From the UHGV virus genome UHGV-1333064: 40,697 bases of DNA; one strand, given 5' to 3'. This DNA comes from a virus. Within the stretch, counting starts at the first letter, position 1. Each line of letters opens with the position of its first letter. Position numbers and translations under genes: made by a program. A model generated the notes under the pieces. It saw nothing but the letters and a program-made list of their open reading frames with translations. It was not told where the DNA came from and searched no databases. This document shows positions 30,713-40,697 of the stretch, one piece after another.

Positions 30713-31053
30713 ACCCCTGCCCTCCCCCAAACCATCAATACTCGCTTCATCGCCGCGCTGTTGCGGCACTCCTGGCAGATCACGTTTGCCTCTGTACGCT
30801 GCACCAGCTTCGAATTTCCCTTCGGCATAGCCGGGATTGTTTCTGGTGCGTATTTCATGCCGTAATCGGTCAGCCGATAAAGCCGCTGTCCGTGCTTGCC
30901 TTCGAACTCGATCAAGCCGTCTGCCAGCAGCGTGCTCACCGTTCCGGATATCTTTTTGGTGGTCATGCCGATAAGCCCTGCCAGTTTGGCGTTGTTCAAC
31001 CCTGGGTTGTTGCGCAGGGCTGCCAGCAGTTGCTCACGAATTGTTATGGTCAT
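30709..31053 (-). CDS. winged-helix DNA-binding protein, hypothetical
   Basis: Track ORF trimmed to MTITIREQLLAALRNNPGLNNAKLAGLIGMTTKKISGTV (HTH-like); ATG overlaps the DnaB stop (ATGA). Confidence 0.45.
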   Translation of the reverse strand: MTITIREQLLAALRNNPGLNNAKLAGLIGMTTKKISGTVSTLLADGLIEFEGKHGQRLYRLTDYGMKYAPETIPAMPKGNSKLVQRTEANVICQECRNSAAMKRVLMVWGRAGV

Positions 31054-32489
31054 CAGAACCCCCCTTTCTTTTTCGGCTGCTGCTCGCGCCCGCGGCGTTC
31101 TGCGGCGGCGGCCTGCTGGTCTGTGTCGTAAATTGCCCCGTTGATCTGATTGCAATAAACCGTTCCGGTACTGCCGTGGCGGTTGAGTCGCAGGATTAAC
31201 TCGGTTTCTCCAGGCGGCACGCTGTCATCGAAAGCACCTTCCCGGTGGATGCCAACCCAGTAGTCGCAGTCCTGCTCAATCTGTCCTGTGTCGCGGGAAT
31301 CGCTCGGCAACGGGCGTTTATTCACTCGCTTCTCCAGTTCGCGGTTGAGCTGGGTCAGCAGCACGACGACGCAGGCAAGCTCTTTGGCGAGGTTCTTCAA
31401 CCCTTTGGTGATCATCCCGTAGGCCAGGTCATTACGGTCGGCTTTTTCGGCTGTCATCAGCGTCAGGTAGTCAACCAGGATCATGCCTACGCAGCCCTTC
31501 TCGCGTTTGATTCGGCGGCTTTCGCTAACGATGTGCGCCAGTGACAGTCCCGGAGTGTCGTCGATGTACAGCATGTCGATTTCACTCAGCCGGCCAGCTG
31601 TAGCGATCGCCTTCTTAAAGTCTCCGTCGTAGTCGCCCTGGTACTGGTCATCGGCGTCATCCGTGGCGGGCATGTAAAAAATGCTCGGATTTACGCCGGA
31701 CTTCTGACCAACCAGTTTTTCGAGGATCTGGTAGCCCGGCATTTCAAGGCTGAACATCAGCGCTGGCTTTTTCTCACGAACCGCGCAGTTGATCGCCATC
31801 TGACCGTACAGGGTTGTCTTGCCCATCTTTGGCCTTGCGCCAATCACGAACAGAGAGCCTTTAACCAGACCTTTCGGCGCCAGCAGCCGGTCGAGTGACG
31901 GGATGCCGGTGCTCATGCCGCGCTGTTCGCCTGAAGGGTCAAAGCGTTTCTCCAGATCTGCTACCCAGTCATCCATAACCTCGCCGAACGACCGCAACCC
32001 ACGGCGACTACCGGTTTTTGAATGGTCTGCGAGCTGGGTGAAAATACCCTGAATGGCCTCGTACTTCTGCGTGGCGCTCATGCCATTGCGGGAATACAGC
32101 AGCTCAGTAGCTTCGGTCAGGCGGCTGATACCGTAGCGCTCCATTGCGGCTTCCCGGACTGACGCAGCGTATGCCACGATGTTTGCAGCGCTGGGAGTGT
32201 TCTTGGCTATCTCCGCCAGGTAAGCAAAGCCACCTACCTGCTCAGCGAGTCCTTTTCCTTCAAGCGCGTCGAACAATGTCAGGCCATCGACTGGCTTGTT
32301 GTCGCGGAACATCTGGCGCATCTCGGCAAAGATCAGCTGGTGAGGTCGGCTGTAAAACGACTCAGGCTTGAGCATCGCCAGAACCTTCTGGACTCGCTCG
32401 CTGTTGTCATCATCCAGCAGCAGGCCACCGATAACGCTCTGCTCTGCTTCGAGGTTTTGTGGTACGGCCATGAAATCAGCGGTCATCAC
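31053..32489 (-). CDS. dnaB: replicative DNA helicase, DnaB family
   Basis: 478-aa protein with Walker A (GARPKMGKTT), DnaB-type motifs (LFSLEMP, IDDTPG, LVDYLTLM) and an N-terminal DnaB-like domain (SVIGGLLLD). Confidence 0.9.
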   Translation of the reverse strand: MMTADFMAVPQNLEAEQSVIGGLLLDDDNSERVQKVLAMLKPESFYSRPHQLIFAEMRQMFRDNKPVDGLTLFDALEGKGLAEQVGGFAYLAEIAKNTPSAANIVAYAASVREAAMERYGISRLTEATELLYSRNGMSATQKYEAIQGIFTQLADHSKTGSRRGLRSFGEVMDDWVADLEKRFDPSGEQRGMSTGIPSLDRLLAPKGLVKGSLFVIGARPKMGKTTLYGQMAINCAVREKKPALMFSLEMPGYQILEKLVGQKSGVNPSIFYMPATDDADDQYQGDYDGDFKKAIATAGRLSEIDMLYIDDTPGLSLAHIVSESRRIKREKGCVGMILVDYLTLMTAEKADRNDLAYGMITKGLKNLAKELACVVVLLTQLNRELEKRVNKRPLPSDSRDTGQIEQDCDYWVGIHREGAFDDSVPPGETELILRLNRHGSTGTVYCNQINGAIYDTDQQAAAAERRGREQQPKKKGGF

Positions 32490-33381
32490 GATCCCCCTCG
32501 CGCACTTCGATGTAGAGCTTTTCGGTCAGGAACTTATCGAATTTCATGCGGCGCCAGGTCTTCCCGGATTTCTGGTCTGGTCGGTCTTCAAGCATCCATC
32601 GGCAGTTCTGAGCGATGTAACGCAGATAACTTCTGAAACCGTCCATGTCCATCGGCTTGCCGTCCAGGTTGCGGGCAATTTTGTTAGCCTTACCCCAGAA
32701 TGTGCGGATCAGATTGCGTCGCTCATCAGTGAGGCATCTCCATCCCCTGGCTTCAGGCAGTTCGTCTTTCAGGCATTGCCACACTTCATCGCATGACAAA
32801 CGAGACTTTTTCTCTTCAGCGGGTTTCTGGTCATTTGCGACATACTTACTACCGTTAGGTAGTAAGTTATTTAATATATTGTTATCTGTGGACACTGGCT
32901 GGACATCGGCTGGACACTCCACCTCCACAGGCATTGATATAACTGCGTTTGCGCTGGACACCGGCTGGACATCGGCTGGACAAAAATTTGACTGATATTC
33001 GTCATATTTGACCACTTTTAGAACAGTAAAACGGTTGTTCGATTTGGTGGTGATCATGCCCAGGTTCTGGAATTTACGGAGCAGTGATTTAACGCGATCA
33101 GCGGTCAAACCCGTTTCCATTGCCAGCGTGTTTCGCCCGGTAATGAACTCTCCGCGCTCGCAGATCACATCGCCGACATCAGTAGATACCAGTGTCTGTT
33201 CGTGATTAGCACGCAGGAGCATGTGAACCCATAAATGAGCCGCCTCAGCGTCCTTGTAGAACGGCACATCCATAATTTTACGGTGCAGCAAGGCAAACCC
33301 CTTACCGTCATTCGTGCGCGGTTTCTGGAGCCTTCTGGCCTCTCTGGCTTCGGCTAAATTGGATACGTTACCCACGGCCAC
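32476..33381 (-). CDS. replication initiator, lambda O-like, with internal origin repeats
   Basis: 301-aa ORF immediately upstream of DnaB; contains iteron DNA that produces the repeated peptide PADVQPVS, as lambda O contains ori-lambda. Confidence 0.6.
   Translation of the reverse strand: MAVGNVSNLAEAREARRLQKPRTNDGKGFALLHRKIMDVPFYKDAEAAHLWVHMLLRANHEQTLVSTDVGDVICERGEFITGRNTLAMETGLTADRVKSLLRKFQNLGMITTKSNNRFTVLKVVKYDEYQSNFCPADVQPVSSANAVISMPVEVECPADVQPVSTDNNILNNLLPNGSKYVANDQKPAEEKKSRLSCDEVWQCLKDELPEARGWRCLTDERRNLIRTFWGKANKIARNLDGKPMDMDGFRSYLRYIAQNCRWMLEDRPDQKSGKTWRRMKFDKFLTEKLYIEVREGDRDDR
32886..33030. repeat. candidate origin of replication: six GGCTGGACA iterons in two triplets plus an AT-rich tract
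   Basis: TGGACA repeats at 32889, 32900, 32911 and 32955, 32966, 32977 (11-bp spacing within each triplet), followed by AAAAATTTGACTGATATTCGTCATATTTGACCACTTTTAGAACAGTAAAA. Confidence 0.6.
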
Positions 33382-33607
33382 TCTCCTTACGTTTCAGTTC
33401 TTCCAGGATGGCGCGCATCTTCTCTGCCACAATCGGGTTAACCGAGCGGATGAAGCGGTCGCGGGTTATGTTTTTATGTACAGCGGTATGGTAATAGCGT
33501 GGATTTTTTGCCATTATTCCTCCTGCAATGAGTGCACACGATTTGCATCTGAAGGCCAGTTCTGTTCGCGCAGACTGGCTTTCGCCATTTTTGAAACTTC
33601 CCATCAC
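33368..33607 (-). CDS. small hypothetical protein
   Basis: 79-aa ORF, ATGA-coupled to the upstream CII/YdaT-like gene and overlapping the O-like gene start. Confidence 0.35.
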   Translation of the reverse strand: MMGSFKNGESQSARTELAFRCKSCALIAGGIMAKNPRYYHTAVHKNITRDRFIRSVNPIVAEKMRAILEELKRKESGRG

Positions 33608-34146
33608 ATAACCCCCAACATCGAAGTGACCATAGCCATCAGCGGCGCGGTCAGATCCGGGTCGACACGGAACATCTCTACAATCCCCTCACTGAGTTCC
33701 TTGAGCTTCTGGTGACGCGGGGCGTTCATCGCAACGGCCACTTTCGCCTCGCTCGTTTCTTTCTCAAGTCGAGCTAAGCGGGACATAAAACTGTCCTCTG
33801 GAAGAAGTCGATGGCGATACTCCAGCGGCAAAACGGCCATGATTGCGGGCGTCAGCTGGCGCACGTTCTCGCGGTACTGCTCAGAGTCGAAGCGGTTATC
33901 CAGGAAGCGGAACAGCTTCTGGCGCGCCCGGCTGATGTCGTCCGGAAAGCTGATGGCGGTCCCGCCCTGCTCCCGGTATTCGTTGATGATCAGCGCTGAC
34001 ACCACGTCCTGATTATCCAGCGCCGATGACCAGGCACGGACCGCATCGCGGATCTTTTCGTGGTCCGGCGTCGCTTTAGCTTGAGCGCGGTTTATCATCG
34101 CTCCCGGGTGTATTCCGGTATTGTGTTGATACGCAAGTGAATGCAT
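33604..34146 (-). CDS. CII-like / YdaT-family early regulator candidate
   Basis: 180-aa ORF directly downstream of the Cro-like gene on the early-right strand; position matches lambda cII / Rac ydaT. Family assignment is from memory. Confidence 0.45.
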   Translation of the reverse strand: MHSLAYQHNTGIHPGAMINRAQAKATPDHEKIRDAVRAWSSALDNQDVVSALIINEYREQGGTAISFPDDISRARQKLFRFLDNRFDSEQYRENVRQLTPAIMAVLPLEYRHRLLPEDSFMSRLARLEKETSEAKVAVAMNAPRHQKLKELSEGIVEMFRVDPDLTAPLMAMVTSMLGVM

Positions 34147-34163
34147 TGCTTTCCCTTTCGTGG

Positions 34164-34397
34164 TTAGGCCGCAGTATCACGCGGCGATGCGAATACCAGG
34201 CTTTCTTTTAGGACCGGAGCCTGGCGGTGAAAATTCTTCGTGCCTTTCTCGATAGCAGATGCCATTTCTGGAGATGCCCGGCGATTTCCGTAGGCGATCT
34301 GGTCCAGGTAACCTGGCGTCGTGTTAGCCAACTTTGCGAGCTGCGCCCATTCGTCGGTAGTGGCGGCCTTGCGCCAGCGGTGTAGTTCAGTGCTCAT
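34164..34397 (-). CDS. Cro/YdaS-like HTH regulator
   Basis: 77-aa ORF divergent from the repressor gene across the operator region; HTH-like segment EWAQLAKLANTTPGYLDQIAYGNRRASPEMASAIEKGT. Confidence 0.6.
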   Translation of the reverse strand: MSTELHRWRKAATTDEWAQLAKLANTTPGYLDQIAYGNRRASPEMASAIEKGTKNFHRQAPVLKESLVFASPRDTAA

Positions 34398-34429
34398 TGG
34401 TGTCTCCGGGTGAGTCGTTTGATTTGGAG

Positions 34430-34495
34430 TTTAGCGTTATGCTAAATACTACGCAAGCATCATTTAGCAATTTGCACATTTATCATTTTGCTAAA
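34430..34495. promoter_or_regulatory. right operator region: three 17-bp operators (6-5-6, half-site TTTAGC) between the divergent cro-like and cI-like genes
   Basis: O1 TTTAGCGTTATGCTAAA (34430-34446, perfect palindrome), O2 TTTAGCAATTTGCACAT (34463-34479), O3 TTTATCATTTTGCTAAA (34479-34495). Confidence 0.6.
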
Positions 34496-34513
34496 AGCAG
34501 TAACAATGCAGGT

Positions 34514-35191
34514 ATGGAAAATAAAGAAATCAGAAAAGCCAACCTGGAAGCGCTGTACGAGAAGCGTCAGCACGAGTCTGGAATGACCAAAGCGCAGTTT
34601 GCCGAGCTCATCGAGACAAGTCCGGCTGCGCTTAGCCAGCTACTGGGACCAAACCCTCATCGCAATATCGGCGATAAGATGGCTCGCAAAATTGAAACTG
34701 CGCTTGATCTGCCTTTTGGCTGGATGGATGTTTTACACGCCAGTGAAGAACCTTCGAACGTTGCATTTCGAGGACTGAACGAGACAAAAGGAAGTTATCC
34801 TGTAATCAGCTGGGTAAGCGCGGGGCAATGGATGGAAGCTGTAGAACCTTATCACCGAAGAGCGATAGATCGCTGGTATGACACGACTGTTGACTGCTCA
34901 GAAGATTCATTCTGGCTGGACGTTAAAGGGGATTCTATGACCTCCCCGGCTGGACTAAGCATACCCGAGGGAGCAGCGATACTTGTTGATCCTGAAGTCG
35001 AGCCGCGCAACGGAAAGCTGGTTGTCGCGAAGCTAGAAGGCGATAACGAAGCGACCTTTAAGAAGCTTGTAATCGATGCCGGCAGACGCTTCCTAAAGCC
35101 CCTTAACCCCGCATATCCAATGCTAGAAATTAATGGAAACTGCAAAATCATCGGCGTTGTGGTTGATGCCAAAATACTAAACATCCCATAA
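34514..35191 (+). CDS. CI-like repressor (N-terminal HTH, C-terminal LexA/S24 autopeptidase domain)
   Basis: Track ORF 34397 (TTG) trimmed to ATG 34514 (MENKEIRKANLEAL). C-terminal region parallels lambda cI (GDSMTSP, ILVDPEVEP, ATFKKLVIDAGRRFLKPLNPAYPM), so the S24 Ser/Lys dyad is likely present. Confidence 0.8.
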   Translation: MENKEIRKANLEALYEKRQHESGMTKAQFAELIETSPAALSQLLGPNPHRNIGDKMARKIETALDLPFGWMDVLHASEEPSNVAFRGLNETKGSYPVISWVSAGQWMEAVEPYHRRAIDRWYDTTVDCSEDSFWLDVKGDSMTSPAGLSIPEGAAILVDPEVEPRNGKLVVAKLEGDNEATFKKLVIDAGRRFLKPLNPAYPMLEINGNCKIIGVVVDAKILNIP

Positions 35192-35210
35192 CCTCACGCA
35201 AAACCCCTCA

Positions 35211-35236
35211 AGCCCGCCATCGCGCGGGCTTTTTTA
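35211..35236 (+). terminator. intrinsic terminator after the repressor gene
   Basis: AGCCCGC-CATCGC-GCGGGCT followed by TTTTT, 20 nt after the repressor stop. Confidence 0.55.
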
Positions 35237-35274
35237 CGTCCCGAATTACTTCGCTGTAAATTTTTAATCGCTTA

Positions 35275-35349
35275 TTAATCAATACGCTAAATAAAACCAT
35301 TCAATAATTTAGCATTTTGCTATTGCGCATAATTTAGCATCACGCTAAA
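35275..35349. promoter_or_regulatory. second operator cluster (left-operator-like): three 17-bp sites with TTTAGC/GCTAAA half-sites
   Basis: TTAATCAATACGCTAAA (35275-35291), TTTAGCATTTTGCTATT (35308-35324), TTTAGCATCACGCTAAA (35333-35349); same 6-5-6 architecture as the 34430-34495 cluster. Confidence 0.5.
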
Positions 35350-35649
35350 TTTACCCCATCGAAACGAAACATCGACAGCTGAGCGAAGTTAGCCAGCGGC
35401 GGACAGCAAGTCGCCTGCTCATTAAGAATTCAGTCAAGCAGCAAATCACCCGGAGCGCTCCTGGCAAATTGAAATGGCGCCCAATGGGATTGAGGCAGGT
35501 GTGTAACGCGTGGCGGGTATAGCACACGAAGAGGACTCCGCACCGGAATGGTTTGCTGCTCAGTTCCCGAACATCGGGGAAGCTTTACCAGCAGCTCTTT
35601 GCGAGGGGCTGACGGCAAATCTACTCCACTTATTTAAAAGAGACGGTAT

Positions 35650-35823
35650 ATGGATAATCAGGATAATGAGTTAAGAAAGGTTGTTCAGGAACTTGCTGAT
35701 GAAGAAGGCATCAGCTTTTCCGATGCCCTAGATGTTTCGATTAAAGCGCTGCGTTATGAGGTAGAGCGCAGAAAATCGTTTAACGGTGAAGCTGCTTGTG
35801 ATGGCTCTGCAATTACTTCTTAG
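35650..35823 (+). CDS. small acidic hypothetical ORF (57 aa), not in the supplied ORF track
   Basis: ATG 35650-35652 to TAG 35821-35823, read by eye; its 3' end overlaps the convergent 92-aa gene by 11 nt. Weak Shine-Dalgarno, so coding status is uncertain. Confidence 0.25.
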   Translation: MDNQDNELRKVVQELADEEGISFSDALDVSIKALRYEVERRKSFNGEAACDGSAITS

Positions 35824-36091
35824 CCAAGTACCAAGAGGTGTCTGCGGCTTCGGAAACCAGTACGTAATAGCTTTGCTTTACACTACTAGCTATACCTCTG
35901 ACTTCCTCTCTAACGTTATATGCAGTTGATGTTTTTACGGTTGTATATTCAGCTGTTGGGAGGTTAAACCAAGTGCCATTACCATCCTGTATCTCACGCG
36001 AATAACCCTTTGCTTTCATCTTTTCATGAAGATTTTCATAGTCTTCAGAATCAGCGCCGCGCAACTCAACTCGAACAATATATCTTGCCAT
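35813..36091 (-). CDS. hypothetical protein (92 aa) at the rexAB-equivalent position
   Basis: Track ORF 35813..36232 trimmed to MARYIVRVELRGADSEDYENLHEKMKAKGY... (ATG 36089-36091) with AGGAA 7 nt upstream. Opposite strand to both cI and the early-left operon. Confidence 0.5.
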   Translation of the reverse strand: MARYIVRVELRGADSEDYENLHEKMKAKGYSREIQDGNGTWFNLPTAEYTTVKTSTAYNVREEVRGIASSVKQSYYVLVSEAADTSWYLAKK

Positions 36092-38964: not shown

Positions 38965-39578
38965 TAGAGCAACGCACCCCTGAATGGTTTGCTGCGCGCT
39001 GCGGCAAGGTCACAGCCAGTCGCCTGGCTGATGTCATGGCCCGGACTAAGTCGGGCTACTCCACCAGCCGCCAGAACTACATGGCCGAGCTGATTTGCCA
39101 ACGGCTAACCGGGAAGCTGGAGGAAGGGTTTTCGAATGCCGCGATGATGCGCGGCACTGAACTTGAGCCAGTGGCACGCGAAATGTACGCGCTGAATGAG
39201 TTCAATGCGGCAATCACTGAAGTTGGGCTCATCGATCACCCAACCATACCCGGATTCGCAGCCAGCCCGGACGGACTTGTCAACGACGACGGGCTTATCG
39301 AAATCAAATGCCCCAACACCTGGACCCATCTTGAAACGCTGAAAACTGGTGAGCCAAAGCGCCAGTACATGCTGCAAATGCATGCACAGATGATGTGCAC
39401 CGGGCGGAAATGGTGTGATTTCGTTAGTTTCGATGATCGCCTGCCGCCTGACCTCGCCTATTTCAAGAAGCGGATTCATTTCGATGAAGAGCTGGCGCGC
39501 GAAATCGAATCTGAGGTTAAGAGCTTCCTTGCAGATCTGGAATCGGAAATTCAGAAAATCACAGAGCGTGCAGCATGA
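38961..39578 (+). CDS. phage recombination exonuclease (YqaJ / lambda-exonuclease PD-(D/E)XK family)
   Basis: 205-aa ORF ATGA-coupled to bet; motifs TPEWFAARCGKVTASRLADVM and ASPDGLVNDDGLIEIKCP fit YqaJ-type exonucleases. Confidence 0.8.
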   Translation: MIEQRTPEWFAARCGKVTASRLADVMARTKSGYSTSRQNYMAELICQRLTGKLEEGFSNAAMMRGTELEPVAREMYALNEFNAAITEVGLIDHPTIPGFAASPDGLVNDDGLIEIKCPNTWTHLETLKTGEPKRQYMLQMHAQMMCTGRKWCDFVSFDDRLPPDLAYFKKRIHFDEELAREIESEVKSFLADLESEIQKITERAA

Positions 39579-40158: not shown

Positions 40159-40697
40159 ATTACGGATTTGTAAGTGTTTGCGTTGAGCAATTCAATGAAG
40201 CGGTTAAGCTGCCACCCGCACACAATCCAGCATCACGAATTTGGCAGCGCCCGTTCCTTAAATGGGCTGGCGGCAAATATTCGCTGCTGCCGGAACTGGA
40301 TCGCCTGATCCCCGCAGGGAAACGCCTTATTGAGCCTTTTGTGGGTGGCGGCTCGGTGTTCCTTAACTCAGACAAGCACGAACGCNNNNNNNNNNNNNNN
40401 NNNNNNNNNNNNNNNNNNNNNNATCAGATGCTGGCGGTGGTCCCCGACTCGGTGATCTATGAGGCAATGAAGGCATTCAGGCATCTGAATGATGCCGAAA
40501 ACTACACGGTAATTCGTGAAGCATTCAACGCGCAGCGGCTGGATGCGGTCGAGCGCGCAGCAGCGTTCCTTTACCTCAACCGGCACTGCTTCAACGGGCT
40601 GATCCGTTATAACCTGGACGGTTTTTTTAACGTCGGCTTTGGGAAATATAAAGCGCCATATTTCCCGGAAGAAGAGATCAGGGCATTTAAGCGGAAG
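40155..40697 (+). CDS. dam: DNA adenine methyltransferase, Dam family (interrupted by the N gap, 3' end outside the window)
   Basis: Read by eye: N-terminus ...RPFLKWAGGKYSLLPELDRLIPAGKRLIEPFVGGGSVFLN (KWAGGK and FxGxGS SAM motifs); after the gap FLYLNRHCFNGLIRYNLDGFFNVGFGKYKAPYFPEEE, closely parallel to E. coli Dam. Frame is continuous if the gap is truly 37 nt. Confidence 0.8.
   Translation, partial: MNYGFVSVCVEQFNEAVKLPPAHNPASRIWQRPFLKWAGGKYSLLPELDRLIPAGKRLIEPFVGGGSVFLNSDKHERXXXXXXXXXXXXXQMLAVVPDSVIYEAMKAFRHLNDAENYTVIREAFNAQRLDAVERAAAFLYLNRHCFNGLIRYNLDGFFNVGFGKYKAPYFPEEEIRAFKRK
40386..40422. other. run of 37 N (assembly gap or masked bases) inside the methylase gene
   Basis: Literal n characters in the sequence. 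Confidence 0.98.

Follow-up and report, generated by a model that had tools for sequence, protein, structure and literature searches.

The 40,697-nucleotide stretch analysed here (virus genome UHGV-1333064, referred to as the window) carries six short repeats inside the gene for a phage replication initiator. We consider it probable (about 80%) that a lambdoid prophage from the Enterobacter/Klebsiella group has its vegetative (theta) replication origin at this six-repeat site, which is placed in the part of the initiator gene that encodes the linker between the two domains of the protein. The case is built on comparison of homologous genes, and on the same grounds the window origin is a member of the L/HK022-type initiator-embedded origins and not of the lambda O/ori-lambda family. 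The origin design itself was already noticed in phage L; the window adds the core TGTCCAGCC, which is not described in the literature searched.

Six 11-bp units in two triplets

Read on the gene (minus) strand, the site consists of six TGTCCA-centred units of 11 bp, grouped as two triplets that lie 66 bp (22 codons) apart. Each unit combines the 9-nt core TGTCCAGCC with two variable nucleotides, and the units are asymmetric, contiguous, and arranged head-to-tail (Table 1). The initial annotation had described six TGGACA-centred repeats in two 11-bp-spaced triplets within the initiator reading frame. Its description was confirmed by the plus-strand starts of the motif, which advance in 11-bp steps (32889, 32900, and 32911; 32955, 32966, and 32977), and both a repeat finder and Tandem Repeats Finder (TRF) returned two period-11 arrays. 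Two matches to the pattern TGTCCA-N5-TGTCCA-N5-TGTCCA are present in the window, against none in 100 shuffles, and exact copies of TGTCCAGCC are confined within the window to the six-unit array. The triplets encode the peptide CPADVQPVS twice (aa 134-142 and aa 156-164 of the 301-aa initiator), in agreement with the repeated PADVQPVS reported earlier. Resemblances to integration host factor (IHF) sites and DnaA boxes, picked out by eye in the spacer and the sixth unit, were partial and not conserved in the family, and these candidates were dropped.

For comparison we assembled 12 phage homologues, 80 IMG/VR loci, and 48 loci from GTDB genomes. In about 130 of these homologous genes, nearly all of the Enterobacterales members, the best repeated 9-mer recurs with the spacing 11, 11, 44, 11, 11 at the equal position in the gene. 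At least eight lineage-specific cores were found, and within any one genome all six units share one core. The core TGTCCAGCC is carried by the window and about 80 loci, and TGTCCAACG by the L-type phages ST64T, ST160, SW-70, and HK542 and Cronobacter phage ENT47670. HK022 and its E. coli and Enterobacter relatives (L103, L104) have TTACCAGCA, Pantoea phage PA-1 has TTACCAACA, and GTGCCAACA is found in Klebsiella phi6.1, Erwinia, Yersinia, Raoultella, and others. Ewingella and Biostraticola have AATCCAANGGA, while TTCCCAGAAGA and GCCAANGAA are each known from single loci. Unit positions 4-6 are CCA throughout the family, and the sixth unit of each member degenerates past its CCA and merges into AT-rich DNA. 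One core per genome that differs between lineages is the signature of concerted evolution expected for sites read by one protein, as judged from these alignments.

The 66-bp module, made of three iterons and the 33-bp spacer, is present in one, two, three, or four copies in otherwise near-identical initiator genes, and the lengths of database homologues (277, 299, 321, and 343/327 aa) differ by whole 22-codon modules. A 277-aa Salmonella variant (about 20 contigs, with the helicase gene intact) has a single triplet that directly abuts the AT tract and palindrome described below. At the other extreme, a 343-aa E. coli variant has four HK022-type triplets, and some E. coli relatives have three or four modules. 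The triplet adjoining the AT tract is the one always retained among the copy-number variants.

The repeats are conserved as DNA

Such variation in copy number, from one to four in relatives, is what would be seen in a slippage-prone repeat, and the module stays in frame to give the repeated CPADVQPVS within a region that encodes a predicted disordered linker. The repeats could then be a mere duplicated peptide-coding segment of a flexible linker, produced by tandem duplication or slippage and with no function at the level of DNA. We regard this as very improbable. As a step of 11 bp is not divisible by 3, each unit of a triplet falls in a different reading frame (CPA, DVQ, and PVS), and the identity of the units therefore cannot stem from selection on the peptide. 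Silent sites point the same way. In the class to which the window belongs (57 distinct genes, at least 93% identical), mean third-codon entropy was 0.017 in the cores and 0.228 in the rest of the gene (permutation p = 0.0004), which makes the silent positions of the cores about 13-fold less variable than those elsewhere. What variation there is affects unit positions 9-11 and the inter-triplet spacer of 33 bp, the latter with a third-position entropy (0.278) like that of the rest of the gene. The lineage-specific core is thus held in common by all units of a genome while the peptide-coding spacer drifts, and it co-varies with the N-terminal domain of the initiator (see below). From this pattern of substitution, we conclude that the repeats are DNA elements and not a protein repeat.

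The core follows the N-terminal domain of the initiator

The initiator matches the PHROGs family phrog_345, annotated "replication initiation O-like" (E = 1.8e-68), and its N-terminal part also matches DnaD-like loader families in the same database. It is 52% identical to HK022 O over the full length of 299 aa and 48-49% identical to gp18 of ST64T and ST160. Scans with Pfam and NCBIfam assigned it to no family: Pfam gave a sub-threshold match to MksE, NCBIfam gave nothing, and neither returned a Rep_3-type or other Rep family. A sequence search of the PDB with the family profile gave no meaningful match, and a look-up of the exact protein found no record, probably owing to a differing annotated start. 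In an AlphaFold2 (AF2) model, the N- and C-domains have a per-residue confidence (pLDDT) of 74-90, and the linker (aa 138-193) falls below 50. The modelled N-domain has helices at residues 83-90 and 94-106 followed by a beta wing at 110-123, and the C-domain (aa 197-295) is helical. When compared with the PDB using Foldseek, the N-domain matched only winged-helix DNA-binding domains (CodY, SmtB/ArsR, MarR, CRP, and TubR). The N-domain is thus a predicted winged helix, and the DNA of the origin would encode a predicted disordered linker between the two domains.

Coupling between domains and cores was evaluated over pairs among 81 non-redundant genes. In 22 pairs the C-domains were at least 90% identical and the cores differed at two or more positions (for example, HK022 compared with HK542 and ST160), and 85 pairs had a common core with C-domains less than 40% identical. 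No pair combined N-domains at least 85% identical with cores that differed by two or more. On this comparison, the class of the core tracks the winged-helix N-domain and is uncoupled from the C-domain. Natural domain swaps tell the same story: Erwinia phage 59 (vB_EhrS_59; L011 829-1779) joins the N-domain and 3+3 array of this family to a C-domain resembling that of lambda O, the next gene being of the lambda P type, and several genomic loci (L128-L131, L134) show the same combination. Together, the swaps and the co-variation indicate that the N-domain and the array form one module, and the C-domain and its helicase or loader partner another, which is what would be expected of an N-domain that contacts the units and a C-domain that brings in the helicase. 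The joint of the swap lies at the AT tract and palindrome.

The alignment also offers a hint of how a core might be read. Residue 99, in the predicted recognition helix, is S, A, or T where unit position 3 is T (TGTCC, AATCC) and Y in lineages with A, G, or C at that position (TTACC, GTGCC, TTCCC). This residue is a candidate specificity determinant, with the association confounded by phylogeny.

As a separate observation, Pectobacterium phage ZF40 (L012, 559-1329) combines an unrelated N-domain with the same C-domain as the family. Its linker contains a 66-bp direct repeat that gives the peptide PVPPKSTAPVPS twice and has a different internal unit, and ZF40 may represent another origin type on the same plan.

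A downstream AT-rich tract is the likely unwinding element

The least stable stretch of the window, at both 20 and 30 bp, lies at 32855-32885 (rank 1 of about 40,670, z = 4.0 in a nearest-neighbour stability scan), within a region (32840-32889) of GC 0.25. It overlaps a 21-bp tract that directly follows the sixth unit (Table 1). All nine third-codon positions of this tract are invariant in the 57 distinct relatives, and the silent sites of the AT tract and palindrome taken together are more conserved than those of all 577 blocks of the same size elsewhere in the gene. An AT tract of 12-24 bp (GC 0.05-0.23) occupies the equivalent site in every family member.

The initial annotation had paired the repeats with AT-rich DNA on their other, upstream side. 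A moderately AT-rich tract is indeed present there (about 32980-33030), and the more AT-rich tract on the downstream side, which falls for the most part beyond the coordinates of that annotation, had been missed. If the upstream tract (32983-33030) were the unwinding element, or if both flanks opened, the origin itself would be unaffected, and the tract has some of the properties required: its GC content is 0.28-0.35, it falls in the top 1% for instability (rank about 0.8%), its third-position entropy (0.029) is below that of 96% of same-size blocks, and it stays similar at the DNA level between homologues that are only 50% identical. Still, this arrangement seems to us unlikely. The upstream tract is clearly less unstable than the downstream one (z 2.4-3.1 against 4.0), and it encodes the family-invariant motif KYD[DE][YF]Q, which can account for its conservation. 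The AT tract of lambda lies on the promoter-distal side of the iterons, and in this family it is the downstream tract that the sixth unit runs directly into in every member. The unwinding element is therefore likely the downstream tract at 32868-32888, which ranks first in instability, has invariant silent sites, and is followed by a palindrome as in lambda; any role of 32983-33017 in the origin is uncertain.

A covarying palindrome follows the AT tract

Beyond the AT tract is a perfect palindrome with 10-bp arms and a 4-nt centre. The set of AT tract and palindrome features was defined from the 81 non-redundant family members and not from the literature. Every family member (L002-L011, L013-L134) has a perfect palindrome with arms of 9-11 bp and a centre of TAAC, TGAC, or TAAA after its AT tract, and 21 distinct palindrome sequences occur at the equivalent site in relatives. 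Covariation was evaluated in a gap-free alignment of 32 distinct sequences, in which the palindrome was located in each sequence so that the alignment is anchored on it. Pairing was kept in 97.2% of cells compared with 62% in shuffles and dropped to 28-45% when the partner was shifted by 1-3 columns. Compensatory changes on both sides were seen in 10 of the 10 pairs, and no one-sided (G-T/G-U) changes were found among the 32 aligned sequences. Strict Watson-Crick compensation without wobble intermediates argues for symmetry or a hairpin at the level of DNA rather than for an RNA stem. When 31000-36000 was scanned with Rfam, neither the origin nor the palindrome matched a known RNA family. As single-stranded DNA, the palindrome would fold into a hairpin of -8.6 kcal/mol (z = -4.1). 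On the antisense strand the hairpin and the T-rich tract scored as terminator-like and may act as an antisense terminator.

The arms track the C-domain (rho 0.58) better than they do the N-domain (rho 0.26), and the same arms can occur in genes that differ in both domains. This suggests that the usual recombination joint lies in the AT tract and that the palindrome is not tied to the specificity of the iterons. Covariation of this kind marks the palindrome as a conserved element specified by its structure and not by its sequence.

These elements suggest how the origin could work. By analogy with ori-lambda and iteron plasmids, N-domains would line up head-to-tail on the units, all on one face of the helix. 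Stress from the two arrays, together with negative supercoiling and transcription through the gene, would open the adjoining AT tract. The phage's own DnaB-type helicase, the product of the next gene, would be recruited to the separated strands by the C-domain, with no lambda-P-type loader involved. Extrusion of the palindrome as a hairpin could mark or stabilise the opened DNA, which is the weakest step of the scheme. A more specific version, in which the palindrome is a third origin element that forms a hairpin or cruciform when the AT tract opens and positions or stabilises the loading of the DnaB-type helicase, with the units bound as a head-to-tail array of monomers, is put forward tentatively, and we think it somewhat doubtful.

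Relation to known origins

In Salmonella phage L, as in ST64T, ST160, SW-70, and phages of the HK542/Sf6 type, gene 18 encodes a homologous initiator and contains, at the position seen in the window, 3+3 repeats of 11 bp with a 66-bp period, likewise followed by an AT tract and palindrome and then by a DnaB-type helicase gene. The six imprecise 11-bp repeats of phage L gene 18 have been proposed as the likely origin, itself a prediction, and were contrasted with the four repeats of about 20 bp in P22 gene 18 and in lambda O; genetic evidence was cited that the 18-12 module acts as a unit (PMC8022706). The window differs from the L type in its core (TGTCCAGCC instead of TGTCCAACG, 2 of 9 positions), in its palindrome arms, in an N-domain about 45-50% identical, and in the hosts of its variant, which are Enterobacter, Klebsiella, Kosakonia, and Pseudescherichia. 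The O genes of HK022 and VT2-Sakai have the 3+3 layout, the 66-bp period, the AT tract, and the palindrome arranged identically and are paired with a DnaB-type "P" partner. HK022 O differs in its core, TTACCAGCA, in the encoded peptide (PADYQQITT), and in having a C-domain of a different subtype.

The likeness to ori-lambda is one of layout. In lambda (NC_001416), four annotated iterons at 39034-39118 are followed by an AT-rich stretch and then by an inverted repeat with 12-bp arms and a 4-nt centre (GTCAGAGAATTC/GAATCCTCTGAC). In both systems the order of iterons, promoter-distal AT tract, and 4-nt-centred palindrome has the same orientation to transcription, the iterons begin within the initiator gene (from nt ~350 in lambda and ~400 in the window, of a 900-nt gene), and a two-domain initiator has the origin in its linker-coding part. 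The units themselves are unlike. Lambda has four iterons that are inverted repeats of 18-19 bp and bind O dimers (PMC5043065), whereas the window has six asymmetric, contiguous direct repeats of 11 bp and no dyad iterons. Lambda P loads the DnaB of the host, whereas the phage in the window encodes its own DnaB-type helicase in place of a lambda-P-type loader, and its initiator falls outside the lambda O protein family.

P22 shares the order orf48, 18, 12; its gp12 is of the DnaB type, and its origin too lies within gene 18 (PMC8022706, PMC3349717). It differs in having four repeats of about 20 bp and a gp18 about 25% identical to that of L (PMC8022706), P22 being compared here by description. 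Iteron plasmids, such as those with pPS10 and pSC101 RepA, R6K pi, and RK2 TrfA, combine asymmetric helix-phased direct repeats, winged-helix initiator monomers, and an adjoining AT-rich element (PMC5043065). The window resembles them in the helical phasing of its asymmetric direct repeats (11-bp spacing, 66-bp period) next to an AT-rich element. Their iterons, however, are 17-22 bp long and intergenic and are read by Rep_3-type initiators, whereas the units of the window are 11 bp long, contiguous, and inside the coding sequence of the initiator. The "six iterons" of the Stx phages 933W and P27 were considered as a closest match and rejected, as these are lambda-type 19-bp iterons in a lambda-type O (PMC7466680).

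Plasmid iteron arrays also serve in copy control, and a start of initiation at this site is deduced from the layout. The units could accordingly be initiator-binding sites used for regulation, through autoregulation, titration or handcuffing, or the blocking of transcription or translation, with the true origin elsewhere in the prophage. This is improbable, in our view, for an array that is joined directly to the least stable duplex of the 40.7-kb window in a layout that matches ori-lambda. The window has no second cluster of cores that might be the true site: a search for further clusters, as possible regulatory sites, found only scattered one-mismatch matches at a frequency near chance (13 outside the origin against 9.2 expected), and the genetics of phage L assign the origin to the 18-12 module (PMC8022706). 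Two of the one-mismatch copies (34914-34922 and 34948-34956, minus strand) lie 34 bp apart in the CI-like repressor gene, probably by chance.

Several points do weigh against reading the site as an origin of the kind proposed. BLASTP detected no sequence similarity between the initiator and lambda O (E = 3.4), the Pfam model Phage_rep_O gave no match, and as no Pfam or NCBIfam model covers the initiator, the analogy with lambda is one of architecture alone. The earlier statement that the site mirrors ori-lambda within O, with a different repeat unit and count, therefore holds on comparative evidence for iterons within an initiator gene and for the other unit and count; the protein is O-like in architecture only. 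The structure of the initiator is a model from a shallow alignment of 24 sequences, and the Foldseek matches to winged helices are weak (best E = 6e-3, none at or below 0.001). The natural one-triplet variants imply that two triplets are the common state and not an obligatory one. The minimal ori-lambda (39034-39160; PMC3349717) does not include the palindrome of lambda, and an essential role for the palindrome is harder to argue as a result. Finally, the openly searchable literature (older subscription papers being outside its scope) contains only the phage L prediction and no experimental test of the L/HK022/VT2-Sakai-type origin.

Gene context and feature coordinates

The origin lies in a lambdoid early-right operon. 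Upstream of the initiator gene are, in order, a small orf48/DUF2740-like gene, a YdaT gene in the position of cII, a Cro-like helix-turn-helix (HTH) gene, and a divergent gene for a CI-like S24 repressor. The DnaB-type helicase gene, whose product is the presumed partner of the initiator C-domain, overlaps the 3' end of the initiator gene by 14 nt, and the same pair of genes is found in HK022, ST64T, ST160, and others. A promoter scan of 32400-34500 found no sigma-70-like site. Among phage records, Enterobacter phage CobraSix (97%) and Klebsiella phage Chronis (93%) come closest, and the window's variant is also found in genomes of Enterobacter pasteurii, E. soli, Pseudescherichia, and Kosakonia.

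The orf48/DUF2740-family reading frame always lies between the gene in the cII position and the initiator gene. It is tagged as "tail protein" in PHROGs (phrog_1913) and in many phage records, apparently a mis-annotation that has been propagated. The cII-position gene belongs to the YdaT_toxin family (Pfam 6.9e-27; phrog_163, "CII-like transcriptional activator") and not to the classical Phage_CII. Near its end the window contains 37 consecutive N, which indicate an assembly gap or a masked stretch.

Table 1. Coordinates of the putative origin, its parts, and surrounding features in the window, with copy-number variants of the 66-bp module in related sequences.
Feature	Position	Strand	Sequence or remark
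Initiator gene (301 aa)	32476..33381	-	open reading frame; N-domain aa ~27-130, linker aa ~138-193, C-domain aa ~197-295
Segment encoding aa 93-120, with residue 99 (candidate specificity determinant)	33022-33105		
Upstream moderately AT-rich tract	32983..33017 (to ~33030)	-	AAATATGACGAATATCAGTCAAATTTT; encodes the N-domain end VVKYDEYQSNF
Iteron triplet 1, promoter-proximal	32950..32982	-	TGTCCAGCCGA TGTCCAGCCGG TGTCCAGCGCA; three units in three codon phases
Inter-triplet spacer, 33 bp	32917..32949	-	length holds triplets 66 bp (six 11-bp steps) apart; sequence drifts
Iteron triplet 2, adjoining AT tract	32884..32916	-	TGTCCAGCCGA TGTCCAGCCAG TGTCCAcagat
AT-rich tract, 21 bp (proposed DNA-unwinding element)	32868..32888	-	CAGATAACAATATATTAAATA, GC 0.14
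Perfect palindrome, 10-bp arms, 4-nt centre	32844..32867	-	ACTTACTACC-TAAC-GGTAGTAAGT
DnaB-type replicative helicase gene	31053..32489	-	Pfam DnaB 2.6e-31, DnaB_C 1.4e-57
orf48/DUF2740-family small ORF	33368-33607	-	
YdaT_toxin-family gene, cII position	33604-34146	-	
37-N run	40386-40422		
Module copy variants, 277 aa			P0002-P0008
Module copy variants, 321 aa			P0122-P0149
Module copy variant, 343 aa			P0121
Module copy variant, 327 aa			P0159
Module copy variants, loci	L142 2895-2925; L144 2893-3125		

Implications

Records of close relatives call the initiator gene a "hypothetical protein" and mark no origin, so the assignment is of use for annotation. The fresher points of this analysis are the covarying palindrome by the unwinding element, the specificity series formed by N-domains and cores, and the 66-bp module that varies from one to four copies. 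If the palindrome does act as a third origin element, the like layout of lambda would mean that an element hitherto regarded as dispensable has either arisen convergently or been conserved since very ancient times, and contiguous asymmetric 11-bp units would imply an array of monomers, a mode of binding unlike that of lambda O dimers. At least eight cores that co-vary with one small winged-helix domain form a natural specificity series for the divergence of initiators and origins. Among lambdoid prophages, Stx phages of the VT2-Sakai type included, this series could help to predict incompatibility in replication and the exchange of modules.

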